Of a stretch of DNA of 64,000 nt, positions 41,831-63,570 are shown piece after piece. The translations under genes were made by a program, and so were the position numbers. Under the pieces are notes generated by a model. The model had not been told where the DNA came from and did no database searches. It saw only the letters and a program-made list of their open reading frames with translations. The stretch's first letter is position 1; every line of letters starts with the position of its first letter. The DNA comes from Acutalibacteraceae bacterium. GTDB lineage: Bacteria; Bacillota; Clostridia; Oscillospirales; Acutalibacteraceae. Location of the stretch: NCBI GenBank assembly GCA_045589375.1, contig JAZNOY010000042.1:101-64100 (forward strand), read 5' to 3'.

Positions 41831-43091
41831 CGCAATCCCTCCTGCTTAAAAGAACACATTTTTTAATTTCTGCTTTATCTCGATGATTGCGAACGATATC
41901 CTCCGCAAAGGCTCTGCAGGTAGGAGCACCGCAAGCACCGCAATCTATTCCGGGAAGCTCCTTGCGAAGCTTCTGAATATCTGACATCATTCTCATAGAC
42001 TCAGCCATATTATCGCTCAGCCTACTTATCGGATTGTATTCGGGAAGCTCGTTAAAGAAATAATCCTCGGGAATGTATTTTTCTTCCACAGGTGAAAGAA
42101 AGTTCTGCGAAACGGGCAAATATCTTCGGAGGCTTTGCAGCCTTGCCTTTGCTATAAAGGGGTTTTGCATACAAAGCACGCCGCCGACGCAGCCACCCGT
42201 GCAGGCATTAAGCTCTATAAATTTAAGAGGCGGTATGTTTCCGTTTTCTATTTGGTCTAACACATGGATAACATTTTCAATTCCATCTGCCGCCAAATAA
42301 TCCTCGTTGAATATTGCTGTTGCTTCGCCGCCCGAGCTTGCCCAGCCTATTCCAATCATTCCAGATTGCGAAAGTGATTTTATTTCACAGTCCTTATCCA
42401 TCGCACTTATAAGCGAAAAATAAATATCGCTGATAGAAACCACCGCATCAACTGCGCTTTCATAATCCGCAAAGCCGTTTTTAACATAGCTTGACTTCGC
42501 AGGACACGGGGATATAAAGCAAACGCCTATTTCCTCGCTCGAAAGCTCGGGATGCTCTTTTAAGGCCTTTTTCTTTGCAAGCCTTGCCGCCATTTCCATA
42601 GGAGGCAGCATTTTGAGTATATTTTCGTTAAGTGACGGGAAGCGAAGCCCTATAAGCCTCACAACTACCGGACAAGCCGAGCTTATAACCGGCGTTTTAA
42701 TACCGTCAGTCTTAAGATATAATCTTGTATAGGCAGAAACCAGCTCTGCCGCTTTCGAGACCTCGTAAACATCATCGAAGCCTATCTTAAGCAAACCATC
42801 AAGAACATAATCGACATCATCAAGATTATCGAACTGACCATAAAGCGAGGGCGCCGGAAGAGCAATTTTCCATTTGAATTTTTCCATAGCCTCAAGCTTA
42901 TCGCAAACCGCTTTCTTGGCTTTATGGGGGCAAACCCTTATACATTCGCCACAGTCAATACAACGCTCTGAATTAATAACCGCCTTACCGTCTTTAATTC
43001 TGATAGCCTCCGTGGGACAACGGTGCAGACAGGTGGTGCACCCTGCACACTTTTCGCTATCGAGTAAAACAGAATGTTCGTATTTATTCAT
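41817..43091 (-). CDS. sensory-type [FeFe]-hydrogenase-like protein (H-domain with altered L1, no PAS)
   Basis: Two N-terminal CxxCxxCxxxCP motifs. L1 is SSACP (Ala at the proton-relay Cys position), L2 is SPCPAKS and L3 is ELNACTGGCVGGV. There is a C-terminal extra Cys motif, CGACGAPTC. Confidence 0.72.
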   Translation of the reverse strand: MNKYEHSVLLDSEKCAGCTTCLHRCPTEAIRIKDGKAVINSERCIDCGECIRVCPHKAKKAVCDKLEAMEKFKWKIALPAPSLYGQFDNLDDVDYVLDGLLKIGFDDVYEVSKAAELVSAYTRLYLKTDGIKTPVISSACPVVVRLIGLRFPSLNENILKMLPPMEMAARLAKKKALKEHPELSSEEIGVCFISPCPAKSSYVKNGFADYESAVDAVVSISDIYFSLISAMDKDCEIKSLSQSGMIGIGWASSGGEATAIFNEDYLAADGIENVIHVLDQIENGNIPPLKFIELNACTGGCVGGVLCMQNPFIAKARLQSLRRYLPVSQNFLSPVEEKYIPEDYFFNELPEYNPISRLSDNMAESMRMMSDIQKLRKELPGIDCGACGAPTCRAFAEDIVRNHRDKAEIKKCVLLSRRDCDEGK

Positions 43092-43111
43092 ACCTTAACC
43101 CTAAATGCAGT

Positions 43112-43537
43112 TTAGCTTAAATTGACACGCATTGTAATGGTGGTTCCGCTACCTACAACGGTCTCTATCTTCATATCATCGGAATAGCGCTTCATATTAG
43201 GAAGTCCCATACCGGCTCCAAAGCCTAAAGACCTGATTGTATCGGTTGCAGTAGAAAAGCCCTCCTGCATAGCCTGTTCTATATTTTTAATGCCGGGACC
43301 ATGGTCGGAAAGAACAATCTCTATGTAATCCTCATAAACGCGCACCTCGGCATCACCGCCGCCCGCATGGATTACCATATTGATTTCACCCTCATACATA
43401 GCTATTGACACTCGCCTTATTATTTCGGGAGATATGCCAAGCTGACGAAGGTTCTTCTTTACCTGAACTGAAGCCTGACCGGCCGAAGTAAAGTTTCCTC
43501 CATCCACATCAAAGTGGAAAATCAATGCTTCAGACAT
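43112..43537 (-). CDS. SpoIIAB/RsbW-like serine kinase (HATPase_c, anti-sigma-factor-type)
   Basis: 141 aa. N-box-like YEGEINMVIHAG and G-boxes SDHGPGI and GFGAGMGLPN. Confidence 0.7.
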   Translation of the reverse strand: MSEALIFHFDVDGGNFTSAGQASVQVKKNLRQLGISPEIIRRVSIAMYEGEINMVIHAGGGDAEVRVYEDYIEIVLSDHGPGIKNIEQAMQEGFSTATDTIRSLGFGAGMGLPNMKRYSDDMKIETVVGSGTTITMRVNLS

Positions 43538-43886
43538 GACGAGTCACATTGCCGGTAAGGCCGTTTGTATATAAAATGCCGCAGGCATCATACATACGCT
43601 TATCGGTGGTCATAAGAACTATACCGTGTTCACGGGCAAGCTCAATCATATCCTCACTCGGAGCCTTTGAACGAACGAAAACGATGCATATCATATCCAT
43701 CATTTCGGCCGTTCTGATTACCTGAGGATTAACAAGTCCCGTAAGCAAAACGGCTTGGTCCTTAACATAGGCCAAAACATCACTCATCATATCGCTTCCG
43801 CAAGCGGAATATACATGGCGGTCGAGCATTTCCTCGTTACAAAGCACCTCGGCACCAAGCAGTTCTTTAATGGTAGTAATTTTCAT
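43530..43886 (-). CDS. DRTGG domain protein
   Basis: 118 aa with a LLTGLVNPQ...IVFVRSK...IVLMTT pattern. Confidence 0.65.
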   Translation of the reverse strand: MKITTIKELLGAEVLCNEEMLDRHVYSACGSDMMSDVLAYVKDQAVLLTGLVNPQVIRTAEMMDMICIVFVRSKAPSEDMIELAREHGIVLMTTDKRMYDACGILYTNGLTGNVTRHV

Positions 43887-43913
43887 AAAGCCATTTCCTT
43901 CTGCTAAAGCAGT

Positions 43914-44414
43914 TTATTTATTCATATATTTATCCAAAATTCCGTCAACATCGTCAACGGTAAGTCTGCCGTAAACCTCATCGTTTACAGTGAGAACGGG
44001 AGCAAGACCGCACGCACCTATGCAACGGCAGGCGGTAAGGGAAAATTTACCGTCAGCAGTGCATTCATCGGCACCGATGCCCAAGCGCTCACTTAGTTTA
44101 TCGAATATAGGACCTGCGCCCTTAACATAGCAAGCAGTTCCAAGGCAAACAGAAATATTATATTTGCCCTTGGGAGAGAGTGAAAACTGAGCATAGAAGG
44201 TTGATACACCATAAACCTGCTCAAGCGACACATCCATACCCTCAGCTATCATTTCCTGCACTTCAAGCGGGAGATAACCATAGATATCCTGTGCCTTCTG
44301 CATTACTACCATAAGGTTGCTCTTATCAGCTTTATGCTCTTCAATGACCTGCATAAGCTGAGCTTCTTGCTCTGCGGTTCCCTTAAACGGAAGTTTGCTT
44401 ATTTTCTTCTTCAT
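43914..44414 (-). CDS. hydC: NuoE-like [2Fe-2S] subunit of the hydrogenase
   Basis: Thioredoxin-like ferredoxin with CLGTACYVKG...CRCIGACGLAP. It is the first gene of the operon. Confidence 0.9.
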   Translation of the reverse strand: MKKKISKLPFKGTAEQEAQLMQVIEEHKADKSNLMVVMQKAQDIYGYLPLEVQEMIAEGMDVSLEQVYGVSTFYAQFSLSPKGKYNISVCLGTACYVKGAGPIFDKLSERLGIGADECTADGKFSLTACRCIGACGLAPVLTVNDEVYGRLTVDDVDGILDKYMNK

Positions 44415-50632: not shown

Positions 50633-52315
50633 CTAATCTATGTTTTCAAAATGAATTCGCTTATCACAAATGCTTAAAGCGGCTTCGCGGTGGGTTATAA
50701 TAAGCACCGTGCGATTTGTCATAGAGCGTATATTCTTTAAAAGCTGTTCCTCGGTTGGTGCATCGAGCGCACTCGTTGCCTCGTCTAAAAGAAGAATCGG
50801 ACGCTCTGAGAGGATTGCTCTTGCAACCGAGAGGCGTTGCATTTGTCCTTCAGACAAGCCGCTTCCGCGTTCGCCTAAAATGGTATCCAATCCGTTTGGA
50901 AGCTCATCCACAAAGCCATCTGCACAAGCAATTTTAAGCGCTTGATAAAGCTTTTCCTCCTGCTTCATTAAATCGGGGTCGGAAAAGGTTATGGTTTCGC
51001 GAATGGTTCCCGAAATTAATTGGTTACCCTGCGGAACATAAGCAAACAGACCGCGCCAAGAAGCATTAAGGCTATGGCGAGAGCCATCGGTATTTTGCAA
51101 ATAAGCGTTTCCGCTATCCAAAGGATATAAATTAAGCAAAAGCTTAAGAGCGGTGCTTTTGCCGCAACCCGATTCACCCGTAAAGGCAATAAACTCGCCC
51201 TTATGAATATCTAAATTAAGGTTTTTAAGCACCTTTTCATTTTCGTTTTCATAAGCAAAGCAGGCGTTTTCAAGACCTACAGAATAAAACTGCTCGTCAT
51301 AATATTTGTGAATTTCTCCCTGCCCTATGGGGAATGCCGCAACACCCGACTCAAAGTCTTCAATCTCAATTAATCGCTCTGCGCTTGCGAGCATTGAGTA
51401 ATATTGCGAAATATAAGAGGATATCATGGCCATCGGAGTTTCGAGCATATTAATCAAATATAATATTGAGGACATCGTTCCGTAGCTCATAAGGCCGTTT
51501 AAAATTCCAAAGCCGCACAAGCCGACACCGAGAACCTGCGCGCCGTTCATAGCAATGCTCAGGGCGGTGTGGCTTAAATTTACAAAGTGAAAACGGCGCA
51601 TACGGGTTGCAATATAGTTATCCGTATGCTTTTTACCCAACTCCTCAGAGGCCTTTTCCTGTGTAAAGGAGCGAACAACCAACAGGCTATATAAACGTTC
51701 CTGCATAAAGGAACGGGCTACACCGTCTGCCTGCTGGGCTTTCTTATGATGAAGCTTAATTTTTTTGCGGAAAAAGTAAGAAAAAAGAACCATTAATAAG
51801 CTGCAGGGCAATAAAATATAAACGAGCCTCGGAGCAAAATTGAGCAGCGCAATCAAGGCGCCAACCATACGCACTAAAGCACCTGCAAGCTCAGGAAGAA
51901 TGGTGGCAACTGCCCTTGAAATAACCGCGGTATCAGAGATAATGCGGTTCATCCACTCGCCCGTGTGGGTTTGAGTGATTTTTGCATAATCACGATGAAG
52001 CAGCTCGGAGAAGGTATGTGTTCGAAAGGCTCTATCTAACAAGGAGAAGCTTTTTTCGGATATGTATCTGCCTAAAGATTGAATAACCACCGTAAATACT
52101 ACAAGGGCTATAAAAAAGGCAAGATGGCTATAAAACGCATCACTTATGCCGGCGGCCGCTTGGTCAACAACGCTACCGAGCGCATAGGCATATAAAATAC
52201 AGGTATATCCCTGAACTATGCGAACAAGCATTAATAGTGCCGTCCACCATAATGTTTTGCCCGATACATTAAAAATCCATTTTAAAATTAAACGGTCTTT
52301 TTTATCCATCAGCAT
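50633..52315 (-). CDS. ABC exporter, fused 6-TM permease and ATPase (MsbA/half-transporter type)
   Basis: N-terminal TMD. NBD with GESGCGKST, LSEGQMQR and LLLDEATSALD. Its ATG abuts the stop of the upstream gene. Confidence 0.85.
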   Translation of the reverse strand: MLMDKKDRLILKWIFNVSGKTLWWTALLMLVRIVQGYTCILYAYALGSVVDQAAAGISDAFYSHLAFFIALVVFTVVIQSLGRYISEKSFSLLDRAFRTHTFSELLHRDYAKITQTHTGEWMNRIISDTAVISRAVATILPELAGALVRMVGALIALLNFAPRLVYILLPCSLLMVLFSYFFRKKIKLHHKKAQQADGVARSFMQERLYSLLVVRSFTQEKASEELGKKHTDNYIATRMRRFHFVNLSHTALSIAMNGAQVLGVGLCGFGILNGLMSYGTMSSILYLINMLETPMAMISSYISQYYSMLASAERLIEIEDFESGVAAFPIGQGEIHKYYDEQFYSVGLENACFAYENENEKVLKNLNLDIHKGEFIAFTGESGCGKSTALKLLLNLYPLDSGNAYLQNTDGSRHSLNASWRGLFAYVPQGNQLISGTIRETITFSDPDLMKQEEKLYQALKIACADGFVDELPNGLDTILGERGSGLSEGQMQRLSVARAILSERPILLLDEATSALDAPTEEQLLKNIRSMTNRTVLIITHREAALSICDKRIHFENID

Positions 52316-53407
52316 CTACCCTCCGTATTTTTTCAAAATTAAAGGAATATTGCAGCTACCCGTTTCGTTTTTGCATTGAAAATCACGAAACAGCAGCTTT
52401 CGTAAAATCGTTTCCTTCGCAGGCTCTCGCAAAGCCACCTGCTCGGCAGGCTCTCTTTCGCTTTCGATAACCAACGCATTAGCGCGGATTTTTTCTATTA
52501 ACTCCTTGCCCTTATTTGTTCTCGCGATAACCAACGAGGTGCCCATTCCATCAGCCAATTCGGGCTTAAAGTTTTCAACACCCCAATAGTCACCGATAGT
52601 CAGGTCAAAGGGCAGCTCCCAATGGGTATAAGGGCATTGGTAACAGCTCGGTCGAAGTGTAATACATTTCATATAAAGTCTGCTAAAAGGGTCGTTGCCC
52701 ATTGAAACGGCATATTCTTGGTTATCAACGGTATAAGCAACGGTATGCCCATCGTTTTTAATCCTTTTATCCCTAAAGCAGTAATTTTCAAGTTTTTTAT
52801 CGCCTTTAATATGGGAAACATAATCTCTCCACAAGCCGGGCGATTGCACACCACGGCAAATAAGTGCCGCCAAAATTAAATTCGAGGAGGGCTTTCCGAT
52901 AAATCTGCGAACACCGTCGCATTGACAGGGCGTTCCTGTAAAAAGCACCTTTTTGCCCGCCTTTAAAGACTCGCTTATTTGAGAATAAATACCCGTAAGC
53001 TCGCTTTGAACATATTTGGATTTTCTCATTCTTGAAATATCGTTTGAGAGAATATGACGAACATTAAAGTCCTCATCAAAAGCCGCACCGCAAACCAAGC
53101 CGCCCGCCGAAATTATCTCATCGGCAAAAAGCGAAAATGCACCGCCCGAGGAGCTTTTCTTTAAAAGCTCGGTATCATTGCAGCGCACGGCATAGGCGCT
53201 ACCATCGAGCTGTTCGAGGGGATTATTAGCAGGACAAGCCTCTTTGCAAGCACCGCACTGTGTGCATAGCTCGTTATTAATCGAAGGATAAATAAAGCCC
53301 TCGGCATCCTCTATCATAGAAATAGCATTATTAGGGCAAACGGCACAACACGCACCACAGCCAAAGCACTCGGATTTTTTATTTATTAACTGTATCATCG
53401 AGGGCAA
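52316..53407 (-). CDS. coenzyme F420 hydrogenase/dehydrogenase beta-subunit (FrhB)-like Fe-S flavoprotein
   Basis: Two N-terminal ferredoxin motifs (CFGCGACCAVCP, CTQCGACKEACP) followed by an FrhB_FdhB-like body. This type is usually a partner of pyruvyl transferases. Its start overlaps the upstream gene by up to 29 nt. Confidence 0.72.
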   Translation of the reverse strand: MPSMIQLINKKSECFGCGACCAVCPNNAISMIEDAEGFIYPSINNELCTQCGACKEACPANNPLEQLDGSAYAVRCNDTELLKKSSSGGAFSLFADEIISAGGLVCGAAFDEDFNVRHILSNDISRMRKSKYVQSELTGIYSQISESLKAGKKVLFTGTPCQCDGVRRFIGKPSSNLILAALICRGVQSPGLWRDYVSHIKGDKKLENYCFRDKRIKNDGHTVAYTVDNQEYAVSMGNDPFSRLYMKCITLRPSCYQCPYTHWELPFDLTIGDYWGVENFKPELADGMGTSLVIARTNKGKELIEKIRANALVIESEREPAEQVALREPAKETILRKLLFRDFQCKNETGSCNIPLILKKYGG

Positions 53408-54428
53408 TTCTCCTTAGATATGAAATAGATGAAGCCTTGCGCTCGTCCATAAGGCACCAAAGCTCTTCGTAGTTCGGCGAAACCACGGTTTCTAAAGCGG
53501 AAGATAGCCCTAAAAAGCTTAACATTTCATCAAGTCTTCCGTTGCGGGTGCTAAGCTCCCCTGTAAGCCTTTTTATATGGAAGCTTCTACCGAATATCAT
53601 TGAAAAAACCATACCGTGAAAGGAATTGGTGAACACGCTTTGCGCGTTACGAATTAAGCCGAGCCATTCGGTAACACCCGTAGTGTTCCAAGCGCTCATG
53701 CCTACCTGCGGCATAAAAGCGGCAGTAACAATACGAAGCGGCAGGCCTTGGCTTTCGGCCTCTTTACGAGCCCTTGCCAACAGCTCCTCGTCATACTTGA
53801 GAAGGAACAACAGAATATAGGGCTCTAAATCGGTCTTTTGCGTCAGTTTCTCCCAATCCTGCCTATCTAATAACAGTGTTGGGTCTAAGCATACCTCGGC
53901 GTCTTTTCCCGTTAAAGCCTTTACTATCTGACAGCCGCTCGCCTCTCTAACCGATATATTCTTAAATTTTGAAAGCTGGTCTGCTGCCCAAGCCTTTGCC
54001 TTTTCGGGTAGGTCATCTGCACCGAAGCTTGCGGCATAGCTATTGCGCTTTTGGCTCTTGGCAAAAGGCAGAAAATAGCGCGCATCGGCGCCGGGAATTC
54101 TAAAATTCCAAATCTGGTCGCTACCTGCTATAAAGCAGTCATAATCATTATCTATAGGCTCTGCCGGTTGATACGGGCGGGAAATTTTCATATATTTCTG
54201 CCTAAAGTCTTCAAAAAGAGCCTCGCGTTTTTTGCTTTCCGCCTGTATTTTACGAGCAAAAATAGCAGCCGCACCGACAGCAGCCTCTGCCCCGGTGTTT
54301 CCCTTCGGCATTTCGATTTGCACGAATTGACTTTCCTTACCCAGCTTTAAGAGGGTTTGCTGCAGAGCATAAGCCTGCAACACTGCACCATAGCTATCTG
54401 CCTCGTGGAAGGTTAAAATTCCAATCAT
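53379..54428 (-). CDS. polysaccharide pyruvyl transferase family protein
   Basis: N-terminal GILTFHEADSYGAVLQAYALQ is a signature of this family. About 350 aa. Confidence 0.78.
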   Translation of the reverse strand: MIGILTFHEADSYGAVLQAYALQQTLLKLGKESQFVQIEMPKGNTGAEAAVGAAAIFARKIQAESKKREALFEDFRQKYMKISRPYQPAEPIDNDYDCFIAGSDQIWNFRIPGADARYFLPFAKSQKRNSYAASFGADDLPEKAKAWAADQLSKFKNISVREASGCQIVKALTGKDAEVCLDPTLLLDRQDWEKLTQKTDLEPYILLFLLKYDEELLARARKEAESQGLPLRIVTAAFMPQVGMSAWNTTGVTEWLGLIRNAQSVFTNSFHGMVFSMIFGRSFHIKRLTGELSTRNGRLDEMLSFLGLSSALETVVSPNYEELWCLMDERKASSISYLRRIALDDTVNK

Positions 54429-55276
54429 TATTCCATTTCCTTTCTTGCTCGCTGCGCAGCACTCGACAGTAAAAGCCCTCTTTTTTGTCGCTCTAAGGCT
54501 TGTATGAGTGCGGTATAGTGCGCTTTATCACAATCACAATGCTCTAAAATCGCCAGTCTAAGCGCGGTGAAATTTTCAATGCGCTGTAAATTCTCCCTAT
54601 ACGAACGGCTACGACTGGAATGACCGGTATGTCTGCGGCAATAGGTATGTAACTTTTCATCCAAATAGCCACATTCGCTTCTGCTCGCCGAGGGTAATAA
54701 AAGCTGTAGATTTTGTCCCTCGGGAGATTCCGGCATTTTTTTACTTGGATAGCCCTTAAAAAACAACTCGGTTCTTATCATATAACAGCCGGCATAGCAA
54801 TAGGTTTTATCTAAAATTAGCTCTTCAAAGATATTATTTTGACTGCGGTCGGCTTCCAATGCACTTTCGCCTAATATGACATTTTTATCGGCATCCATAA
54901 CAATTCCGTTGCTTCTAACCATTCCCACATCAGTGTGGTTTAAAAGCCAAAGTGCCTTTTTTTCTATGCTATCATAAGAAAGCAGGTCATCGGCATCGCA
55001 CCAAGTGAAAAACTCACCCGTAATAAGCGGAAGCGCGGCATTCATTGCGGCGGCCTGTCCTTTATGTGAGCAAAAAAGCAATTTAACGGAAATTCCCGCC
55101 GCTTCTAAACGCACCTTATAGTCCCTCAAACAAGCCGCCGAGTCATCGGTAGAGCCATCGTCTACCAAAATAACCTCTAACGGTCGCCAGGTTTGTTGCT
55201 CTAAGCAATTTAGGAAGTCCTTTAAATAAGGCATTGAATTGAACACAGGAGCAGCCAAGGTTACAAGTGGTTTCAT
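54428..55276 (-). CDS. glycosyltransferase family 2
   Basis: GT-A N-terminus (LAAPVFNSMPYL...ILVDDGSTDDS) and a DAD motif (CDADDLL). Confidence 0.85.
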   Translation of the reverse strand: MKPLVTLAAPVFNSMPYLKDFLNCLEQQTWRPLEVILVDDGSTDDSAACLRDYKVRLEAAGISVKLLFCSHKGQAAAMNAALPLITGEFFTWCDADDLLSYDSIEKKALWLLNHTDVGMVRSNGIVMDADKNVILGESALEADRSQNNIFEELILDKTYCYAGCYMIRTELFFKGYPSKKMPESPEGQNLQLLLPSASRSECGYLDEKLHTYCRRHTGHSSRSRSYRENLQRIENFTALRLAILEHCDCDKAHYTALIQALERQKRGLLLSSAAQRARKEME

Positions 55277-55938
55277 TCCTTTTTCATTCGCTTTCTGAGC
55301 AATGCGGCATAGTTTGCCATCTCTTGCTTTGGTTGAACTCGACCTGTATTGGTCAAATGAAGTCTTCTTTTTAAAGTAACCGTTTGAATTTGCGCCGTTT
55401 TAATACCCGAATCCCTTAGCTTTAACAGCCAAGCAACCGTTTCGCCGCTTTTCATCGTGGCATCAAAAAGGCCTATCGTATCAAAAATGCGCCGCTTTAT
55501 TAAGCTACAGCCGGGCAGAACACCGGCATAGCTACCGCTCCGAGGGCACAGCTCGGCCTTTTGGGAATCGGTAAGCTCGGGAGAAATAAAATCCTCAGCC
55601 ATAGCAAAAACAGCATCGACCTCTTCTGAAAGGGCACAATACATAGCATCTAATGCGCCGGGGGTTAGCTCATCATCGGCATCGAGCAACAAAACAAGCT
55701 CGCCTTTAGCAACACCGAGTCCCGCATTTCGCGCCGATGCCGCGCCGCCTTGGTGCTTTTTCAAAAGCTCTACGCCTAATTCCTTTGCCACACTCGCGGT
55801 GCCATCGGTAGAGCCATCATCAATCACTATGATTTCCATTTCGCCCTGCCAATTTTGCCCTCTTGCAGAAGCGACCGCCTTTTCGAGATATTTTTCCGCC
55901 TGATGCGCGGGAATTATAACAGATAAACTTGGTAACAT
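55273..55938 (-). CDS. glycosyltransferase family 2
   Basis: LSVIIPAHQAEKYL...IVIDDGSTDGT and LLLDADDEL. Confidence 0.85.
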   Translation of the reverse strand: MLPSLSVIIPAHQAEKYLEKAVASARGQNWQGEMEIIVIDDGSTDGTASVAKELGVELLKKHQGGAASARNAGLGVAKGELVLLLDADDELTPGALDAMYCALSEEVDAVFAMAEDFISPELTDSQKAELCPRSGSYAGVLPGCSLIKRRIFDTIGLFDATMKSGETVAWLLKLRDSGIKTAQIQTVTLKRRLHLTNTGRVQPKQEMANYAALLRKRMKKE

Positions 55939-55953
55939 AAAATTCTTCCTAAC

Positions 55954-56646
55954 CTAATTATTTAAAAAAGACACATAATCAAAATCGTCCATCAATCGTT
56001 TTTGGCTGAATTTCGTTGGATAATCCATAGCATATTTTTTTCTGAAAAAGACCGATTTTCTCAAAGGGACAATCTCCTTGTTAAAAGAAAAAAGGACCTT
56101 TGCAAGCATACGCTTTTTGGGGTGCTTGATACCCTTAAAGCGCTTATATAATGGGTTTAGTTTGTGCAGGAAGGGAAGCTTTTGAATTGTGGGCGAATGA
56201 AAGATAACATAGAGATTATCAAGGTCTACCCTTTGGCATCTTCTAAGCCATTTTTCCTTCCCTTTTTCAAAGGTGCCGTCGTGCATAAAGTGTAACACTA
56301 CCTGCTCTTCTCCCTTTTTCAAAACCCCAACGGGATAGGTTATACCGTCTATAAAAATTTCTTCGGGTGTGCAATTTAAGTAATATTCTAAGTCGTTAAC
56401 AAAGCGGGTAAAATCATTCGGCTTAATTAAAACATTTGCCGTGGGAGATAAATACGGCAAGCCTAAATCGCGGTAAATAGCTCCGCCCACGCAGTTGTTG
56501 CAAATGATAGAAGGCGCGGTATTTTTTAGCCTGCTTTGCATCTGTTTTATAAATTTCAATCTTTTTTGCTGAGTATTTTTTTGGAGCTTAACCTTTATTT
56601 TTTTAAATAACTGAGCCTTCAACCTGCTTTCACTCCCCGCGCTCAT
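55954..56646 (-). CDS. DUF1919 domain protein (polysaccharide-locus associated)
   Basis: IICNNCVGGAIYRDLGLPYLSPT matches the DUF1919 N-terminal signature (SNNCWGG..Y). Confidence 0.68.
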   Translation of the reverse strand: MSAGSESRLKAQLFKKIKVKLQKNTQQKRLKFIKQMQSRLKNTAPSIICNNCVGGAIYRDLGLPYLSPTANVLIKPNDFTRFVNDLEYYLNCTPEEIFIDGITYPVGVLKKGEEQVVLHFMHDGTFEKGKEKWLRRCQRVDLDNLYVIFHSPTIQKLPFLHKLNPLYKRFKGIKHPKKRMLAKVLFSFNKEIVPLRKSVFFRKKYAMDYPTKFSQKRLMDDFDYVSFLNN

Positions 56647-57806
56647 TGTTTATTAATGTTTTTTAGCCTTTCGCTGTGCCTTTGTGCTGACATAATAGCG
56701 GCACGGCGAACGCGTTCTTGGCGCACCACCTCGGGCGGCAGCTCAATTCCTCTGCGCTTCATTTCGGCAATAACCTCGCCGTAATGTTGGCTATTCTTTT
56801 TAGAGAGAATATCTAAAAGGTAAAAATTTTTGTTGTTATAAAATTTTTCGGTGTCAAAAACCTTATTAAATTTATCTAAAGCTCCGAGAGCATACAAGGC
56901 GCCTATCGTGCGAATACATTTACCACAGCTCCCGCAATTTTCCCTTTCGGCATAAATACAAGGGTGTAAATATTTTTGTGCAAGCGGAAAATCAGATAAC
57001 TCCTTTAGCTTTTGCATACGGGAGATATGGCTTCCCGTAGAATAAAACACGGTGCAATCGGTTTCAAAGCATGTAAGTGGGAGCAGCTCGTAATAAGCGC
57101 TGTTCTCCTTAACGAAAGAAAGTCGATTGAATTCATAAGCGCCCGAATTTAAGAAAACTCCGAAAAGCTTTTGAACTGCCAACACGGCGGCAGGCAGTCT
57201 AAAAGCCGCAACTGCTAAATAATTTTCATTCTGCAGCAGGTGTATATTAGAATCTATCGTTATCACCGAAAGCTTTGTTTCAGCAGCGATATTTTTACGG
57301 GCTTTGTTCGCCATAAAGCCTAAAAGCTCTGTGTTGTGGTCGCTTTCCAATGTCCCCACATTTGCAACAAGCAAGTGGGTAAGCTTACGACTGGGCTCGG
57401 TGGCATTAAGGTGTGTCATAAGAGTATGCATACTGTCTACGCCACCTGTCCACCCCGTTCCGACAGCCCTCTCACACGGCAGCGGTGCATCAACAACACT
57501 CGCGTGAATGGCGATGCTCTGATAAATATCCATAGCTGCCGCCATAGTCGGTATGAGATATGTTGTGATTTGATAATAAAGCCTCTTGGTCATCGGGGCT
57601 TCACACTTAATATCCTCGCCGCGCCTCATAGCAGTAGTAAGAAAAGCCACTACAAAGGCATCCGAGCGCTCAGCAGTGAGATATTCGGCATATTCCTTCT
57701 CGGTTGAAAACCATACGGTTTCCTGCCTTCCGTCCAAGTCCACCGTGGCCGATAGAACTGCTCTGTTTTCGGTAATATTAAGTTTTGGCTTTCCAAAACA
57801 AATCAT
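56643..57806 (-). CDS. QueC-like PP-loop ATP pyrophosphatase family protein, paralog A (function unknown)
   Basis: PP-loop variant GWTGGVDS at about aa 118-125. About 175 aa later comes a Zn-type motif, C-x7-C-x2-C-x2-C (HPCIYAERENCGSCGKCIRT). It also has a unique ~110-aa N-terminal domain and a C-terminal extension. Confidence 0.5.
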   Translation of the reverse strand: MICFGKPKLNITENRAVLSATVDLDGRQETVWFSTEKEYAEYLTAERSDAFVVAFLTTAMRRGEDIKCEAPMTKRLYYQITTYLIPTMAAAMDIYQSIAIHASVVDAPLPCERAVGTGWTGGVDSMHTLMTHLNATEPSRKLTHLLVANVGTLESDHNTELLGFMANKARKNIAAETKLSVITIDSNIHLLQNENYLAVAAFRLPAAVLAVQKLFGVFLNSGAYEFNRLSFVKENSAYYELLPLTCFETDCTVFYSTGSHISRMQKLKELSDFPLAQKYLHPCIYAERENCGSCGKCIRTIGALYALGALDKFNKVFDTEKFYNNKNFYLLDILSKKNSQHYGEVIAEMKRRGIELPPEVVRQERVRRAAIMSAQRHSERLKNINKQ

Positions 57807-57824
57807 TCGAATTCTCCTATGCTT

Positions 57825-59024
57825 TTAAGGCTTTTTTGGGGCCTCTTTATTCCTGAGCCTTTGCGCTAATGCGCGATATGTTCCGCGCTCTGCCTGAGTT
57901 AGCGAAACAACTCTTTTTGCAGCCTTAGGTGCTTTCGCCAATCGATAGGCTTCGTCAGGAATGGGAATATTATTGATTTTAAAGATTTGCAAAACATTTT
58001 TGTTAAATGGGTCATCTTTATTGGCAAGCAGATAAGCAAAATGCTCCGGTAATGCCTTTATAAACTCATCAGTGTCAACCACCGAAGCGAAACGGTCGAG
58101 CACTCCATAGGCATAAAGCACCATAAAGGTGCGAACGCATTTTTTGCACAAGCCGCAATTTGCCTTACTAAGACGCCTTCTAAAGCAGGGGTGCAGCCAA
58201 CGGTGCGCCGGCTCCCATTTTGCAAGAGCAAGGAGCTTTTCGTGGCGATAAGCCTCACCGCCCGGACAAAAAACACTAAGGCCCTCGGTTTGTCCGCAAT
58301 GGATTAGCAAAAGGTCAAAAGAGCAATCTCTATTAAGCTCCATAGCAAATTCCGAGAAGGCATAACCCGACGAATGAAGATAAACCGAAAGCAAGCCCTG
58401 CAATGCCATTGCAGATGCCAAATTGCGAAATCCGCAAACAGCTACGAAATCCTCCGGCAAAACCTCAATGATATTTGAGTCCAAAGAAATCAACTGATAG
58501 TCCTGCTCTTTGGCAAAAACAGCAGCATCCTCGCAAGCCTTATGAAAGCTTTGCTTATAAAACTCACCATCAAAGGCACCAACATTGAAGACTGCCAAAT
58601 GGGTTATGGGAAAAGCACTTTCCTTTTGGTGCTTCATAATGGTATAAAGACAATCAACTCCACCCGAAAAGCCCGTGGCGACAGCGCCCTTATTTTGAAC
58701 GGGCTTCGCTACGGTGGGTGCCGTAATTTTTATGGGATTATAAATATCGCCCGCGCCGCATAATGTAGGTATTAAGTAATTCTCAAGCTGGTAATGAAGC
58801 CTTTCGGACATAGGTGTTTCGCAGACAATATCGTGACTACCGCGCATAGCGGCAGGAAGCAACGCCATGACAAAGGCATCACTTCTATCGTAACACAAAC
58901 ATTCTGAATTTGCTTCATCAACGCCGAACCAAAGCGTTGTGCCCTTACCGTTAATGGTTATATCGGCACACACTCGGCTCTGCCCGTTTATGCTTTGGCG
59001 ATATATTTTTTTGATATTCAGCAT
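57825..59024 (-). CDS. QueC-like PP-loop ATP pyrophosphatase family protein, paralog B (function unknown)
   Basis: The start is set at ATG 59024, 4 nt after the GT2 stop, with RBS AGGAA. PP-loop variant GFSGGVDC and the motif C-x9-C-x2-C-x2-C (HPCFRRRLSKANCGLCKKCVRT). It aligns with paralog A throughout. Confidence 0.5.
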   Translation of the reverse strand: MLNIKKIYRQSINGQSRVCADITINGKGTTLWFGVDEANSECLCYDRSDAFVMALLPAAMRGSHDIVCETPMSERLHYQLENYLIPTLCGAGDIYNPIKITAPTVAKPVQNKGAVATGFSGGVDCLYTIMKHQKESAFPITHLAVFNVGAFDGEFYKQSFHKACEDAAVFAKEQDYQLISLDSNIIEVLPEDFVAVCGFRNLASAMALQGLLSVYLHSSGYAFSEFAMELNRDCSFDLLLIHCGQTEGLSVFCPGGEAYRHEKLLALAKWEPAHRWLHPCFRRRLSKANCGLCKKCVRTFMVLYAYGVLDRFASVVDTDEFIKALPEHFAYLLANKDDPFNKNVLQIFKINNIPIPDEAYRLAKAPKAAKRVVSLTQAERGTYRALAQRLRNKEAPKKP

Positions 59025-59028
59025 ACCC

Positions 59029-59715
59029 TTATTCCTTGCTTCCTCTTTTAGTCTGACGAATAGCATCTGCCATAATAGACATCATTCTGTTAATTCCCGA
59101 GGATTTATGGGTTAAGGAGATATTTTTGCTATGTATTCTCCTTTTATAAAGCACCTCGGGTATCAAGTGGTTAAGGCTTATTCCCGAAACATTCAGCCGA
59201 TACATAAATTGCGTATCCTCGCCGTGAGGATAGTCGGTGCGAAATGCACCGCATTTTTCAAACACGCTTCGGCGAATTGCACAGGTAATGATGCATCTTT
59301 CAAGGCTTGCGTTCAGTAGCTCCCTTTGGCGTTCTCCCATAGGGCCGCTCGCTTCATCGTAAAAATTCTCCGCAAGAGTAAAAACAAGCATACAATCAGG
59401 GTTTTCATCCAAATATTTTACTTGCTTTTCAAGCTTACTTGAATCCCACATATCATCGGCATCTAAAAAGACGACTATTTCCCCGCGCGCCGCCTCAATG
59501 GCCGCATTTCGAGTAACCGACACACCGGCGTGCGTCAGCTTAATATACCTCACCTTTTGGTAATTAGATACCACTTGCTCCGTATTATCGGTAGAGCCGT
59601 CATCAACGACGACTATTTCATAATCGGTAAAGCTTTGTGCGAGAACGCTTTCAATGGCTTCACCTATAAATTGAGCGCAATTATATGTGGGGATTAAAAC
59701 CGAAACCCTTGGCAT
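59029..59715 (-). CDS. glycosyltransferase family 2
   Basis: VSVLIPTYNCAQFI...VVVDDGSTDNT and FLDADDMW. Its ATG shares one nt with the PqqD stop (TAATG). Confidence 0.85.
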   Translation of the reverse strand: MPRVSVLIPTYNCAQFIGEAIESVLAQSFTDYEIVVVDDGSTDNTEQVVSNYQKVRYIKLTHAGVSVTRNAAIEAARGEIVVFLDADDMWDSSKLEKQVKYLDENPDCMLVFTLAENFYDEASGPMGERQRELLNASLERCIITCAIRRSVFEKCGAFRTDYPHGEDTQFMYRLNVSGISLNHLIPEVLYKRRIHSKNISLTHKSSGINRMMSIMADAIRQTKRGSKE

Positions 59716-60128
59716 TATTCGCTGAGAATCGGCCAGCCTTGCTCAACATCTACATCGTGAACAGGGTCTGCAAGGATTAAATCCTGCACCTCGTTAAACT
59801 CATCAACCGATAGAGTAAAGCCATCGGTCAAGGCAGCAGCATCAATGCTAACGGGCGCTTCGGCAGTGCCTTCAGAAGCTACTATTACTTCCTTTTCAAG
59901 CAAAGCGTTTATAAAGCTGTTTAAATCCTCCTCGATGTTTGCAGGGCAACCATCAAGAGCCTTTATAGCGGTTAGCACTGCATCTACAGAAGCACCGTTT
60001 AAAAGTGCATCTAAAGCGGCAGAGCCAAGACTACTTGTGCCGTAATACATACCTGTTGTGAAATTAATCACAATAGCCTGTCCCTCTGCCATGTCATAAA
60101 ACATTTTTTCTTCGTTTAACTTATACAT
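59715..60128 (-). CDS. PqqD-family (RRE-like) protein with a 52-aa acidic C-terminal tail
   Basis: The N-terminal ~85 aa fit the PqqD pattern (AEGQAIVINFTTGMYYGTSSLGSAALDALLNGASVDAV). The tail at aa 86-137 has 13 D/E and no K/R. Confidence 0.65.
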   Translation of the reverse strand: MYKLNEEKMFYDMAEGQAIVINFTTGMYYGTSSLGSAALDALLNGASVDAVLTAIKALDGCPANIEEDLNSFINALLEKEVIVASEGTAEAPVSIDAAALTDGFTLSVDEFNEVQDLILADPVHDVDVEQGWPILSE

Positions 60129-60130
60129 TT

Positions 60131-61150
60131 TTAAAACTCCTTTTCTATAAAGCTGCGTAAAAACGCAGGGTTTTTCTTTAAATCGGTGCTCATACGCATT
60201 TCATAAACGGGTAAACCCGAAAGGCGCTGAGCCATCTGCTGAATTAGTGCTGTATCATGGCGCGATTCAATTTGCGTTATGGTCGAATGAATAAGATGAA
60301 TCATAACCTTACTCGGCGGTATGGGTGCTATACTCGGCTCATCGTCACCTGCGATTTTCGGAATTATCAGCGCCTTAATATTCAAAGCGGAACTAAATCT
60401 TTCTGCCGGCACCTGAAACTGCGGCTTGCCTCCCCTAAAGCTGCCATCCTCCTCTAAAAGAGGCTTGCCAAGCTGTGGAAACTCACCATACATATCCTCG
60501 CGCAAAGCCACAATTGTATATAAGGGCATTGCCAAAAGCTCACCCGAGGCGGTAATGAGCGTGTAATCATCCGAAACAAAATCAAGGTCCTCGGCCAAAC
60601 AGGAAACGGCGAAGGTTGATTTACCGCTTCCGCCTCTGCCTGCTATCATTACTCCCTTGCCACCCGTGCCAACGGCAGCGGCGTGGAATAACAGCTTGTT
60701 ATTTGCTTTAGCCCATCTCGCGAAGGCGTTAACCATTACATGCCGCGTTAGCATATAGCCTGAGTTTTGAGGCTTAGGCCTTGCGAAGAAATAGCGCTGT
60801 CTTGCAAAGTCGCAACCCACTAAGGAATCATCATCGGTTCCAATCTTTAAGCTTCCTGTTTCATCGCTACTTTGCCAAACCGATGAAAACTCTGCTTCAC
60901 CCTTTGGAAGATAGTCGTCGCAACGGTCATACCAATATATAAACTTAGCATCAACAGGGCCATCGTCCTCTATCAAAAATCCCGATAAACTCGTTTTGCC
61001 CGCCTCTGCTAATTCCTTAGTTGGAAATCTAAGCTCGATATTTTCACCACAAACCCGAACACGAAAGCCATCAGTAGGCATTTTTCCACTTTTTTCCAAA
61101 TGCCTTTCTACAGCCTGAAAGTATTCGGTTAGTTTTACCTTTGCAGACAC
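60131..61150 (-). CDS. HPr-kinase-related P-loop protein (HprK C-terminal-domain-like serine kinase)
   Basis: LFHAAAVGTGGKGVMIAGRGGSGKSTFAVSCLAEDLDFVSDDYTLI matches the HprK catalytic core pattern (H..G.G.L..G.SG.GKS....L......SDD). GTG start after GGGGGAG. Confidence 0.68.
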   Translation of the reverse strand: MSAKVKLTEYFQAVERHLEKSGKMPTDGFRVRVCGENIELRFPTKELAEAGKTSLSGFLIEDDGPVDAKFIYWYDRCDDYLPKGEAEFSSVWQSSDETGSLKIGTDDDSLVGCDFARQRYFFARPKPQNSGYMLTRHVMVNAFARWAKANNKLLFHAAAVGTGGKGVMIAGRGGSGKSTFAVSCLAEDLDFVSDDYTLITASGELLAMPLYTIVALREDMYGEFPQLGKPLLEEDGSFRGGKPQFQVPAERFSSALNIKALIIPKIAGDDEPSIAPIPPSKVMIHLIHSTITQIESRHDTALIQQMAQRLSGLPVYEMRMSTDLKKNPAFLRSFIEKEF

Positions 61151-61225
61151 CGCATCTCCCCCTTTAAAGCAATAGCTCCTTGCAAATAGTATTTATAGTT
61201 GGTATAATAAACCAAGGTGATTAGT

Positions 61226-62230
61226 ATGAATGAAAATGAAATTGTGTTGTTTTGCGGATTTAATAAAACAACTAAATATTTATGCGAATTATACTCTATG
61301 GACGACACCCACGATAACGCCCTATATGAATGGCTTGATGCCGCCGATTTTGAAGCGCTGCCCTCAGAAGCCACCTCTATGGCCGCAGTAATGGGAGCCG
61401 CTTCTGATTATAGCGGAATTCCCCCTCGCCTAATTCCAAGACTTAAAGGGATAAACAGATATATACACACCTTGAATTCGGGTATGCTATCAGGTCTATG
61501 TGCCTTAGGTGCAAGGCTTAATCAATCCGACATAAGCGTCCTCTTACTTGACGAAACGGCGCTTTATGTTCGTTTCAATAACGCCCCCCAGCGTCAGCTT
61601 TGGCAAATGTTTATAGCCGTATCCGAAAAGGACTATGAAGACACGCTTAACATAGCGCGAGATATCGGCTTTAGCGTGGAAAAATTTCCTCAAACAGCCG
61701 TAGCTCGCCAAGGCGTTACCAGGCAGATTATAATTGCACCTTTAAAGGAAAAGGATTTTCATTTAGTTGATGCCGAGAAAATTGAAATGGGCGGCGCCGA
61801 TTTCCTCTGCCCTACAGTTTCGGAAATTTTAATAGGACTAAGCCGCCGTAATTTTAGGGCGCTAACTAAGCCTAATCCCTCTTTGGTGCGCTGGTTTATG
61901 GATATGAAGCTGCTTTTAGGGCTAATTTCCGATAAGGATTGGGCGTGTGCTTTAAAAATTGCCAAAAGAGAGCATAGCTGCCATCTTATTGGCTTTTTGC
62001 TTACGGTTTATGCCGCTATAACGGGCGATATTATCCCACAAGCAAGCTCCTTTGCGAGCGGGCGCGCTTCGCAAAAAGTATTCGCGCTTCTTAAAAAGCT
62101 TCAAAAAAGCAGCGAAAAAGGTTGGCGCATGCGCCGTTCTTTTCTATTGTTCCGCTTAAGAAGGCCGGACAATATTTTTGCCGCAACCGCGCTTTTTGGT
62201 AAAAACATTTTAAATAAAATAGATTTTTAA
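61226..62230 (+). CDS. hypothetical protein, possibly a degenerate NTP_transf_5-like paralog
   Basis: ATG 61226 follows AAGGTGA. It is preceded by TTGCAA, a 17-nt spacer and TATAAT. Its layout loosely resembles the neighbouring nucleotidyltransferase, but I saw no DxD-type motif. Confidence 0.4.
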   Translation: MNENEIVLFCGFNKTTKYLCELYSMDDTHDNALYEWLDAADFEALPSEATSMAAVMGAASDYSGIPPRLIPRLKGINRYIHTLNSGMLSGLCALGARLNQSDISVLLLDETALYVRFNNAPQRQLWQMFIAVSEKDYEDTLNIARDIGFSVEKFPQTAVARQGVTRQIIIAPLKEKDFHLVDAEKIEMGGADFLCPTVSEILIGLSRRNFRALTKPNPSLVRWFMDMKLLLGLISDKDWACALKIAKREHSCHLIGFLLTVYAAITGDIIPQASSFASGRASQKVFALLKKLQKSSEKGWRMRRSFLLFRLRRPDNIFAATALFGKNILNKIDF

Positions 62231-63402
62231 TCCCCGTTTGTATCTAATCCTACCTGCTGTATATGCTCATCATACTTAGAAAGCTTGCCTTTGTTCATTT
62301 TAAGAACAAGCATACCTCGTTTAATTTTTGCTCGGTTTTTGAACAAGGCATTAAACCAATGCACCACCCAGAACACAGGCAGCAAAAGAGGCTTTTTTGC
62401 TAAAGCCGGATATTTATAAGACAATTCCGAAGGACTCGGAAAAACAGAACGGATAAACCAAAGAAATTTCATTTTAAATATTGATTTATTTCCATCTGCA
62501 TGCTGACGCATTCGGTTATTTATTGCCGATTCATCAAAATCCTCGCACACACCGCCTAAAAAAGCAGAACGGGTTATCAGTTCGGTCGCTTTTGTGGCAC
62601 CTTCCCCGTTAAACCAACTGTTAAGCAGGTCTAATATATTGCGGTAAAAGCTTAAAAGCTTAAGGAAGCCAAGCTTTTCCTCAATATATTTTTCATCCAT
62701 ATCAGGATAATTAACCCGCCAAACATAGAAATCGCAAATATCCTTAGCGCAAATCGAGCCAAAAAGGTAATGCTTGGCGAAATGAACGATTAAATATATA
62801 AAATGCTCCTCGGGGCTCAGTAGATATTGCGAGCTGTTTTCTCTTCTTTTTGCAAGCCGCCAGCTATCGCTATAATATGTAAAATAGCTCTTAAAGCGGG
62901 GCGCTACTAAATGGCGGTGCAGCTCTAAGGTTAGCTCGGGGCATTTCCAAGTATACTCATAGTCACTGTTATCAAGCTCACTAAATCCCAATTTTTGCAA
63001 TATCGGCTGTATTCTTGAATATTGCTCGGGGCGAATGAGAATATCCGCATCCCCCATAACCCGATATTCAGCTTTTGGATAAAGCGGCTTAATAACCGCG
63101 CCCTTAACGGGAAGATACTCAATATTATTTTCATCAAAAACGGCGCAAACCTCTCCGAGCTTTTCCATTTGCCCACGGCTTTTTTTAAGGTCACCACAGA
63201 AGCTTGCCGTCATCTGCACAAGAGCGGGATGTGTTCTCGAAACGCCGCAAAGCAGGGCGCCTTGAATTCCCAAGCCCAGCAGGTGGTGATTATATAATAT
63301 ATCAAACGCCTGCCCTAAATCAAAGGATTCGGGGAGGGAAAGCTTTTCACCCTTTAATGCGCTTCGTAAAAGTGTGATAACGCCTAAATGCAATGCTTCC
63401 AT
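62227..63402 (-). CDS. uncharacterised nucleotidyltransferase family protein (NTP_transf_5-like)
   Basis: The pattern LPVKGAVIKPLYPKAEYRVMGDADILI ... LELHRHL is typical of this family, which is found in lasso-peptide and HPr-rel-A contexts. Confidence 0.65.
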   Translation of the reverse strand: MEALHLGVITLLRSALKGEKLSLPESFDLGQAFDILYNHHLLGLGIQGALLCGVSRTHPALVQMTASFCGDLKKSRGQMEKLGEVCAVFDENNIEYLPVKGAVIKPLYPKAEYRVMGDADILIRPEQYSRIQPILQKLGFSELDNSDYEYTWKCPELTLELHRHLVAPRFKSYFTYYSDSWRLAKRRENSSQYLLSPEEHFIYLIVHFAKHYLFGSICAKDICDFYVWRVNYPDMDEKYIEEKLGFLKLLSFYRNILDLLNSWFNGEGATKATELITRSAFLGGVCEDFDESAINNRMRQHADGNKSIFKMKFLWFIRSVFPSPSELSYKYPALAKKPLLLPVFWVVHWFNALFKNRAKIKRGMLVLKMNKGKLSKYDEHIQQVGLDTNGD

Positions 63403-63531: not shown

Positions 63532-63570
63532 AAAACGGTGCAACCGAAAAATCGGCTGCACCGTTTTTTT
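63532..63570. terminator. bidirectional intrinsic terminator
   Basis: Stem aaacggtgca.ccga/tcgg.tgcaccgttt with a T7 run. Confidence 0.75.

Follow-up and report, generated by a model that had tools for sequence, protein, structure and literature searches.

We describe two adjacent genes, A and B, in a 64,000-nucleotide (nt) stretch of DNA from an Acutalibacteraceae bacterium (GenBank assembly GCA_045589375.1, contig JAZNOY010000042.1, positions 101 to 64,100; the whole stretch is hereafter called the window). Judged from a structural model and from profile comparisons, their paralogous products are PP-loop adenosine triphosphate (ATP) pyrophosphatases with the fold of the adenine-nucleotide alpha-hydrolase superfamily. 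The two genes lie side by side in an 11-gene polysaccharide operon, and we tentatively propose that their products adenylate a carboxylate of a glycan, probably a pyruvyl-derived one, and then form an amide, working as a catalytic pair. The superfamily and its general chemistry are known; the architecture, the proposed pairing of a catalytic subunit with a pseudo-subunit and the presumed substrate class are new.

Sequence, family and predicted fold of A and B

The two genes and their diagnostic elements are as follows:

56643-57806, minus strand: gene A, A-type PP-loop protein (open reading frame (ORF) of 387 amino acids (aa); AlphaFold model with a predicted local distance difference test (pLDDT) score of 95.6)
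57825-59024, minus strand: gene B, B-type paralog (ORF and annotated start, P0121; 399 aa; PP-loop and four-cysteine (Cys4) motif intact)
57483-57806, minus strand: N-terminal domain of A (~108 aa) with the RSDAF and YLIP motifs (secondary structure of the model)
57432-57455, minus strand: PP-loop of A, GWTGGVDS, residues 118-125 (from the translation; at the beta1-alpha1 junction in the model; aligns to the SGGxDS of QueC and MnmA)
56916-56960, minus strand: Cys4 motif of A, C283-x7-C291-x2-C294-x2-C297 (from the translation; aligned by hhalign to the C-x8-C-x2-C-x2-C zinc site of QueC)
58650-58673, minus strand: PP-loop of B, GFSGGVDC, residues 118-125 (from the translation)
58137-58187, minus strand: Cys4 motif of B, C280-x9-C290-x2-C293-x2-C296 (from the translation)

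For B, the ATG at 59024 is the start used by the public annotation and by all B homologs; the longest ORF option begins at 59066, a start that we disfavour because it would overlap the upstream family 2 glycosyltransferase (GT2) gene. Shine-Dalgarno-like sequences precede the starts of both A and B. On the plus strand, ORFs of 123 and 80 aa (57336-57707 and 57586-57828) run antisense to A, inside it and at the A-B junction; nothing supports them, and they are probably spurious.

A and B share 35% identity across 355 aa (BLASTP, E 5e-75) and are thus paralogs, with a similarity far beyond chance. The original prediction for this locus, made from the sequence and its translations, had noted that the two proteins align throughout and share the blocks RSDAFV, YLIPT, GWTGGVDS/GFSGGVDC, (I/L)DSNI, LHPC and C-x2-C-x-KC-x-RT, all of which we found in the translations. 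It had also noted one deviation per paralog from the canonical SGGxDS, which is correct: A carries T for S at the first position and B carries C for S at the last. Among orthologs, the A-type PP-loop reads TGGVDS in 80 and TGGVDC in 30, and the B-type loop SGGVDS in 60 and SGGVDC in 29; as the family consensus is SGGVDS, the deviations of A and B are conservative variants of the canonical motif. The distance of about 175 aa given earlier between the PP-loop and the first cysteine was too long, the actual spacing being ~160-165 residues in A and B.

No named family accounts for these proteins. Neither A nor B matched any Pfam or NCBIfam model, even at E ≤ 10, and PDB sequences gave no match to them, whether they were searched as single sequences or as a first family profile. 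The literature searched on PP-loop proteins with pyruvyl transferases or capsule amidation, on QueC-like proteins with polysaccharides, on PF14907 and on DUF6395 did not mention the family; the earlier statement that no characterised member was known therefore agrees with the Pfam, NCBIfam, PDB and literature searches alike. We found 349 homologs for A and 249 for B, all unnamed or 'hypothetical' and mostly from gut and rumen Clostridia assemblies. A profile search of 1.84 billion cluster representatives returned 7,108 clusters, defined at 50% identity, at E ≤ 1e-3 and 1,370 at E ≤ 1e-30. In a profile scan of one genome per species with the first family alignment as query, members were found in Clostridia, Bacilli, Bacteroidota, Verrucomicrobiota, Lentisphaerae, Cyanobacteria, Nitrospira, Nitrosomonas, Photobacterium, Acinetobacter, Treponema and others. 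Cultured species with a single family gene include Evansella vedderi DSM 9768, Oceanobacillus jordanicus, Holtiella tumoricola, Photobacterium makurazakiensis and Nitrosomonas oligotropha Nm75.

Conservation was assessed on 106 diverse family members, which were also scanned one by one against domain models. Their consensus PP-loop region, AVGTGxSGGVDSxYT, is canonical. In the numbering of A, G122, C283, C294 and K296 are invariant, and D49, F51, S120, D124, N187, R263, K266, N290, C291 and C297 nearly so, with S120, D124, C291 and C297 each at least 90% conserved. The recurring weak matches of these members were to DUF6395 (24 members), MnmA, QueC, NAD synthase, AsnB and LarE; all those other than DUF6395 are PP-loop families. 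The model for N-acetyl-sugar amidotransferases was not among the recurring weak NCBIfam matches.

The AlphaFold2 model of A, computed from a 51-sequence alignment, reached a predicted template-modelling (pTM) score of 0.91 in addition to its high pLDDT, and comprises three parts: an N-terminal domain of beta sheet and helices (residues 1 to ~105), a beta-alpha-beta domain and a helical C-terminal region. The N-terminal domain of ~110 aa and the C-terminal tail of ~80 aa delimited in the original prediction are thus both visible in the model, as a ~105-aa domain and a helical tail. The PP-loop domain is a five-strand alpha/beta domain (strands 114-118, 144-149, 180-186, 215-221 and 253-257) in which strands and helices alternate over residues 114-257, with the PP-loop between strand 114-118 and helix 123-132. 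When this model was compared with the PDB by Foldseek, the best specific matches were NAD synthetase, NcsA and TilS, all PP-loop enzymes; against BFVD, the top match was a phage QueC (E 1.8e-4, probability 1.0, target-normalised template-modelling score 0.57), followed by an 'adenine alpha hydrolase', ThiI and 3'-phosphoadenosine 5'-phosphosulfate (PAPS) reductase.

At the profile level, the family was compared by hhalign with an alignment of nine QueC proteins, one from E. coli and eight from phages. The probability was 89.7% and the E 1.9e-6 over 185 aligned columns covering QueC residues 3-217, and the core domain taken alone reached a probability of 92.4%. The family PP-loop falls on the QueC PP-loop and the block HPC...NCGxCxKCxRT on the QueC zinc site TCY...CGxCxxCxxR. 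The QueC score of 50.6 compares with 11-23 for reversed, column-shuffled and unrelated-protein controls, the shuffled ones having E values of 0.02-0.7. When single sequences were used instead, MnmA scored 44 (E 1.6e-5), TilS 28.5, QueC 28 and NadE 25, and the profile of the 106 diverse members matched MnmA in the PDB over the PP-loop region (E 0.035).

The QueC-like PP-loop core with its cysteine site, as originally predicted, is therefore borne out by the AlphaFold model, Foldseek and hhalign. The prediction had hung on an adenine-nucleotide alpha-hydrolase fold, and with PP-loop enzymes as the top fold matches that reading stands; a close homolog of the PseA/WbpG type, which would have made A and B ordinary glycan-tailoring enzymes, did not appear among NCBIfam matches at E ≤ 10. 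Note that, since MnmA is about equally close, the A/B family is a separate PP-loop family and not QueC; 'QueC-like' fits the core and the Cys4 site, not the family membership. The Cys4 site is of QueC type, its metal probably zinc. The N-terminal domain of A shows no profile similarity to PqqD, QueC, MnmA, TilS or NadE, and its Foldseek matches in the PDB and BFVD are weak and RNase H-like. A role for this domain as a PqqD-like peptide-recognition element was considered and rejected on the lack of profile similarity to PqqD.

Proposed pairing of A with B

In a set of fusion proteins, 600-723 aa long except for one of 1,324 aa, a B-like half precedes an entire A-like half. In the ~20 B-A fusions, the B half ends before the cysteine motif and has lost both the PP-loop (kept in 0/20) and Cys4 (0/20), while its N-terminal domain is kept; the A half mostly retains its PP-loop and almost always its Cys4. 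As standalone proteins, A-type orthologs have the PP-loop in 113 of 115 cases and Cys4 in all 115, and B-type orthologs in 103 and 109 of 109, respectively. The model of one fusion (P0138) has a pTM of 0.81 despite a disordered linker at 274-316, which suggests that the two halves are packed in a defined way.

Among the 25 loci closest to A, a B-type gene lies directly upstream in 12, is fused in 6-7 and lies elsewhere in the locus in 3. Adjacency or fusion thus links B to A in at least 18 of the 25, and the two share a locus in at least 21; these counts, together with the fusions, agree with the heteromeric pair of the original prediction. To the question raised there, whether the two paralogs always co-occur, the answer is that they do so in most of the close loci, not in the wider family: relatives at ≤ 35% identity are mostly single-copy (55 of 77 loci) and do not fall into an A or a B class. 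As most distant relatives are single-copy, the A/B pair arose by clade-specific duplication. From the fusions and the shared loci we infer that A and B form a heterodimer, in which A is presumed to be the indispensable catalytic subunit and B a partner able to lose its active site.

In one arrangement (loci L019 and L029; ~10001-14708 in L019), four family genes stand in tandem, three B-type followed by one A-type, and one of the B-type genes lacks the PP-loop. This suggests that several alternative partner subunits can serve one catalytic subunit.

It is also conceivable, although we consider it unlikely and whatever the chemistry, that A and B are independent enzymes acting in sequence on two carboxylates or sites, with no heterodimer. 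The PP-loop and Cys4 are intact in both proteins here and in most standalone orthologs, including all but six of the B-type PP-loops counted above, and the B genes of some loci number one to three or stand apart from A. The recurrent fusion of A to a catalytically dead B half nevertheless argues for physical association, as do the pTM of the fusion model and the fixed B-then-A order with short gaps or overlaps.

Genomic context and proposed chemistry

A and B belong to an operon of 11 genes on the minus strand, which spans 61150 to 50633 and in which successive genes overlap or are separated by no more than 29 nt. Their order is HprK-related kinase, PqqD-like protein, GT2, B, A, DUF1919, GT2, GT2, pyruvyl transferase, FrhB-like Fe-S protein and ABC exporter. 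The genes other than A and B, and those bordering the operon, are listed below in this order; counts of homologs here and throughout come from a crude BLAST survey of neighbours over 80 genome loci of the family.

60131-61150, minus strand: HprK-related kinase (Pfam/NCBIfam matches below curated cut-offs; homologs in 16/80 loci, all of a close clade)
59715-60128, minus strand: PqqD-like protein (Pfam/NCBIfam matches below curated cut-offs; homologs in 16/80 loci, all of a close clade)
59029-59715, minus strand: GT2 directly upstream of B (Pfam)
55954-56646, minus strand: DUF1919 protein, its start overlapping the end of A by 4 nt (PF08942, E 1.1e-36; homologs in 8/80 loci)
55273-55938 and 54428-55276, minus strand: two GT2 glycosyltransferases (Pfam; homologs of the one at 55273-55938 occur in fusions with A-type proteins, P0085, P0251 and P0238)
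53379-54428, minus strand: polysaccharide pyruvyl transferase (PF04230, E 1.9e-28)
52316-53407, minus strand: FrhB-like Fe-S flavoprotein (Pfam FrhB_FdhB_C and Fer4)
50633-52315, minus strand: ABC exporter with fused transmembrane and nucleotide-binding domains (TMD-NBD), last gene of the operon (Pfam ABC_membrane and ABC_tran; conserved in related loci)
61217-62230, plus strand: unassigned conserved protein (homologs in 9-10 loci)
62227-63402, minus strand: NTP_transf_5 nucleotidyltransferase (Pfam; homologs in 9-10 loci)
63532-63567, minus strand: terminator-like hairpin with a 16-bp stem, between the Mem_trans and NTP_transf_5 genes; upstream edge of the cluster

DUF1919, kept in only 8 of the 80 loci, is likely accessory to the A/B module and not part of its core. 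The pyruvyl transferase and FrhB-like genes overlap by 29 nt and are conserved together in 16/80 related loci. The product of 61217-62230 has no similarity to the neighbouring NTP_transf_5 protein by BLASTP. The PqqD-like, HprK-related and NTP_transf_5 genes and the 61217-62230 gene (59715-63402 together) head the glycan operon with no lasso cyclase, leader protease or conserved precursor ORF among them; in Firmicutes, the first three are known from the tailoring of lasso peptides. Promoter-like sites in the window were not more frequent than in shuffled sequence. Elsewhere in the window, at 41817-44414, a [FeFe]-hydrogenase-like protein (Fe_hyd_lg_C, Fer4, putative Fe-S domain) has as neighbours a NuoE-like 2Fe-2S thioredoxin-like ferredoxin and an HATPase_c_2 protein. 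The group, unrelated to A and B, could be a sensory hydrogenase module.

The gene set of the window recurs in other genomes in changed order. Across the 80 loci, homologs of GT2 were found in ~42, of the pyruvyl transferase in 28, of the FrhB-like protein in 19, of HprK, PqqD and the ABC exporter in 16 each and of uridine diphosphate (UDP)-sugar dehydrogenase in 5. One fused B-A lies in a classical Wzy-type exopolysaccharide (EPS) locus with a Bac_transf priming transferase, EpsG, a UDP-glucose dehydrogenase (Ugd) and a pyruvyl transferase, and with no HprK, PqqD or NTP_transf_5. Within two genes of 44 single-copy distant members, flippases of the Wzx type (17 + 9) and pyruvyl transferases (10) predominate, and ~10 distant loci contain cytidylyltransferase, HMGL-like and HAD/SIS genes typical of pathways for sugars activated with cytidine monophosphate (CMP). 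Family members fused to GT2 domains recur, and one is fused to PGA_cap. From these polysaccharide loci we infer that members of the family tailor surface glycans.

In a metagenome-assembled genome of WOR-3, a 707-aa ORF (L069:3037-5160) combines a member of the family with a PS_pyruv_trans domain (Pfam E 5e-10), a Rosetta-stone link between the activities of the family and of pyruvyl transferases. Members of a more distant clade occur as fusions to S11 DD-carboxypeptidases (L101 and L102, the contigs of P0338 and P0394), in one case also to a methyltransferase. The loci of these fusions are of two types: one has Dlt-like, MBOAT and AlgX proteins, an AMP-binding enzyme with a carrier protein (a DltA/DltC-like pair) and an Asp/Glu racemase; the other lies beside flagellin, a Mur ligase-VanY protein, phosphoenolpyruvate (PEP) mutase and phosphonopyruvate decarboxylase (aminoethylphosphonate biosynthesis) and an alanine racemase.

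Enzymes of the PP-loop superfamily adenylate a carboxylate or carbonyl, and adenosine monophosphate (AMP) is then displaced by a nucleophile. Applied to A and B, this chemistry gives the following tentative scheme. Each protein consists of the ~105-aa N-terminal domain, the Rossmann-like PP-loop domain ending in the Cys4 site and the helical tail, and the duplicated products would act as a B:A pseudo-homodimer, with A the obligatory catalytic subunit and B its partner, on the cell-surface glycan made by the 11-gene operon. ATP would be bound at the PP-loop of A and a sugar-borne carboxylate adenylated with release of pyrophosphate, the likeliest target being the one that the co-conserved pyruvyl transferase adds. 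AMP would then be displaced by ammonia or some other amine, which gives the amide; as the operon has no amine-supply genes, ammonia would be the simplest nucleophile here. The adenylation of a sugar carboxylate followed by amide formation is suggested by a QueC-like core with no glutaminase domain, by the association and fusion with pyruvyl transferases and by genes that would supply amines and amino acids in the vicinity of distant relatives. Among the substrates first considered, namely pyruvyl-ketal or uronic-acid carboxylates of a glycan and Asp/Glu or C-terminal carboxylates of a peptide, the context favours the glycan over the peptide, and the pyruvyl transferase, with its 28 loci and one fusion, speaks for the pyruvyl group. 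A uronic acid is unlikely as the general substrate, UDP-sugar dehydrogenase homologs being present in only 5 of the 80 loci.

Several points weigh against this scheme. Both the substrate and the nucleophile are deduced from gene context alone, and a marker of carboxylated sugars (pyruvyl transferase, cytidylyltransferase or Ugd) is present in only 38/80 loci. We know of no description of an amidated pyruvate ketal. The operon has no glutaminase partner. On the side of the fold, Foldseek of the model of A against the PDB gave no match below E 1e-3, and MnmA, a sulfur transferase, is as near to the family as QueC at the profile level. As to the pairing, the pTM of the fusion model is only an indirect pointer to a defined A:B interface, and B in the window retains its PP-loop and Cys4, so that it may be a second active enzyme and not a scaffold.

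A different use of the same superfamily chemistry would be that of PseA/WbpG/WbuX, in which a sugar is adenylated on the carbonyl oxygen of its N-acyl group, or on another of its carbonyls, and ammonia yields an amidine, no carboxylate being involved. The kind of locus is the same (polysaccharide or flagellin glycan), both groups do without a glutaminase domain, and the ~10 distant loci with cytidylyltransferase, HMGL-like and HAD/SIS genes would fit. We nevertheless regard an amidine product as quite improbable: the N-acetyl-sugar amidotransferase model matched neither A nor B at E ≤ 10 and did not recur among the weak matches of the 106 members, genes for amino-sugar biosynthesis are not evident in the operon, and the strongest associations and fusions are with the pyruvyl transferase, a supplier of carboxylates.

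Peptides as substrates have still less in their favour. Here A and B would stand in for a lasso cyclase or an enzyme of the AsnB type in the manner of the pathways to ribosomally synthesized and post-translationally modified peptides, and, guided by the PqqD-like protein, turn Asp/Glu or C-terminal carboxylates into a macrolactam or amide. The PqqD-like, HprK-related and NTP_transf_5 genes do occur in the same cluster, a trio that accompanies lasso clusters in Firmicutes (PMC7533575), and the ABC exporter of the operon has its TMD and NBD fused. However, the window has no transglutaminase-type leader protease, Pfam found neither such a protease nor an Asn-synthase homolog in the operon, and no conserved small ORF that could be a precursor peptide was found in the 19 related loci that contain HprK. 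PqqD and HprK are each present in just 16/80 loci and both are missing from the ordinary EPS locus of the fused B-A, distant members adjoin flippases, and the N-terminal domain has no PqqD profile similarity. There is, on this evidence, only a slim chance of a peptide substrate, and as neither precursor peptide nor leader protease was found, the lasso-cyclase analogy drawn in the original prediction is unsupported.

With a similarly slim chance, the pyruvyl transferase, the FrhB-like reductase and A/B could form a MurA/MurB/MurC-like route outside peptidoglycan, in which a sugar bearing an enolpyruvyl or ketal group from PEP has that group reduced to a lactyl ether, as in muramic acid, and its carboxylate is ligated by A/B to the amine of an amino acid, peptide or protein. 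In the clade of A and B, the PqqD-like, HprK-like and NTP_transf_5 proteins might bring in the amine, giving an exported glycan-peptide conjugate. A hint of such logic comes from the distant relatives, with their DD-carboxypeptidase fusions and their Mur ligase/VanY, racemase and Dlt-like neighbours. Conversion of the enolpyruvyl or ketal group to a lactyl ether by the FrhB-like reductase is speculation, and we found no literature on such a reduction of a pyruvyl group by FrhB-like proteins.

Least probable of all is sulfur transfer in the manner of MnmA, TtuA/NcsA or LarE, in which a persulfide or Fe-S-bound sulfide would attack to give a thio-sugar or thiocarboxylate and Cys4 would hold an Fe-S cluster: MnmA is the best single-sequence PP-loop relative and the PDB profile match, NcsA, a [4Fe-4S] carrier, is among the top PDB fold matches and MnmA and LarE are among the most frequent weak NCBIfam matches, but the spacing and position of the cysteines match the structural zinc site of QueC, the 106 members have no conserved cysteine outside Cys4 that could act as persulfide carrier, and cysteine desulfurase and sulfur-carrier genes are absent from the operon.

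Amidation of a pyruvyl-derived glycan carboxylate by an A/B pair is thus the reading we favour, and it would matter beyond this locus. Some 7,100 clusters make up a family that has no name, structure, literature or domain model detecting A and B, yet its genes belong to surface-polysaccharide loci, those of abundant gut Clostridia among them. If sugar carboxylates are neutralised or derivatised in this way, the charge and antigenicity of capsules and exopolysaccharides would be altered, and genes would be assigned to a class of glycan modification, the amides of acidic sugars or substituents, for which, to our knowledge, the enzymes are mostly unidentified. The B-A system would also offer a clean natural case of a duplicated enzyme evolving into a catalytic subunit and a pseudo-enzyme partner.

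Comparison with known PP-loop systems

The commonest weak match of the family is DUF6395 (PF19932), found with 24 of the 106 members at a best E of 6e-4, A and B themselves being unmatched. This suggests that DUF6395 is a related but separate, sister family; no mention of it was found in the literature searched, and it is uncharacterised.

MnmA (PF03054) is the best single-sequence profile match over the PP-loop domain and the sole sequence-profile match in the PDB. Unlike MnmA, A and B have no MnmA-type catalytic cysteines and no transfer RNA-binding domains; conversely, Cys4 is missing in MnmA, and the gene contexts are unrelated.

The AsnB-type enzymes and lasso cyclases (PF00733: WbpS, LtsA/AsnB1, McjC-like) resemble the proposed activity in that a PP-loop domain adenylates a carboxylate and an amide or lactam follows. 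Asn_synthase enzymes also occur beside PqqD, HprK and nucleotidyltransferase genes in some EPS clusters. A and B themselves have no PF00733 match, and only 2/106 members match weakly. AsnB-type enzymes carry an N-terminal glutaminase-like domain, whereas the N-terminal ~105 aa of A and B are unrelated to it. In lasso clusters, the PqqD, HprK and nucleotidyltransferase genes adjoin Asn_synthase enzymes (PMC7533575); for A and B neither precursor peptide nor leader protease was found, only the PqqD-like protein.

The closest functional analogy is with PseA/WbpG/WbuX (TIGR03573), in the ATP-dependent, ammonia-using tailoring of a sugar. These are PP-loop enzymes with no glutaminase domain that are encoded in surface-glycan loci. 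Their sequence relation to A and B is undetectable and their architecture is other, and A and B are linked to pyruvyl transferases, not to acetamido-sugar pathways.

QueC (PF06508, TIGR00364) converts a carboxylate to an amide and then to a nitrile with free ammonia and ATP. Models of QueC do not match A or B at E ≤ 10, and only 4/106 (Pfam) and 2/106 (NCBIfam) members match them weakly. QueC is a single-domain protein of ~230 aa in a queuosine/preQ0 gene context; A and B, at 387 and 399 aa, have the extra ~105-aa N-terminal domain and the ~80-aa helical tail, and are encoded in a polysaccharide operon as a paralogous or fused pair. In both, however, the PP-loop opens a Rossmann-like domain that is followed ~160-175 residues later by C-x(7-9)-C-x2-C-x2-C, a glutaminase domain is absent, and the Cys4 motif of A and B aligns column for column with the C-x8-C-x2-C-x2-C zinc site of QueC.

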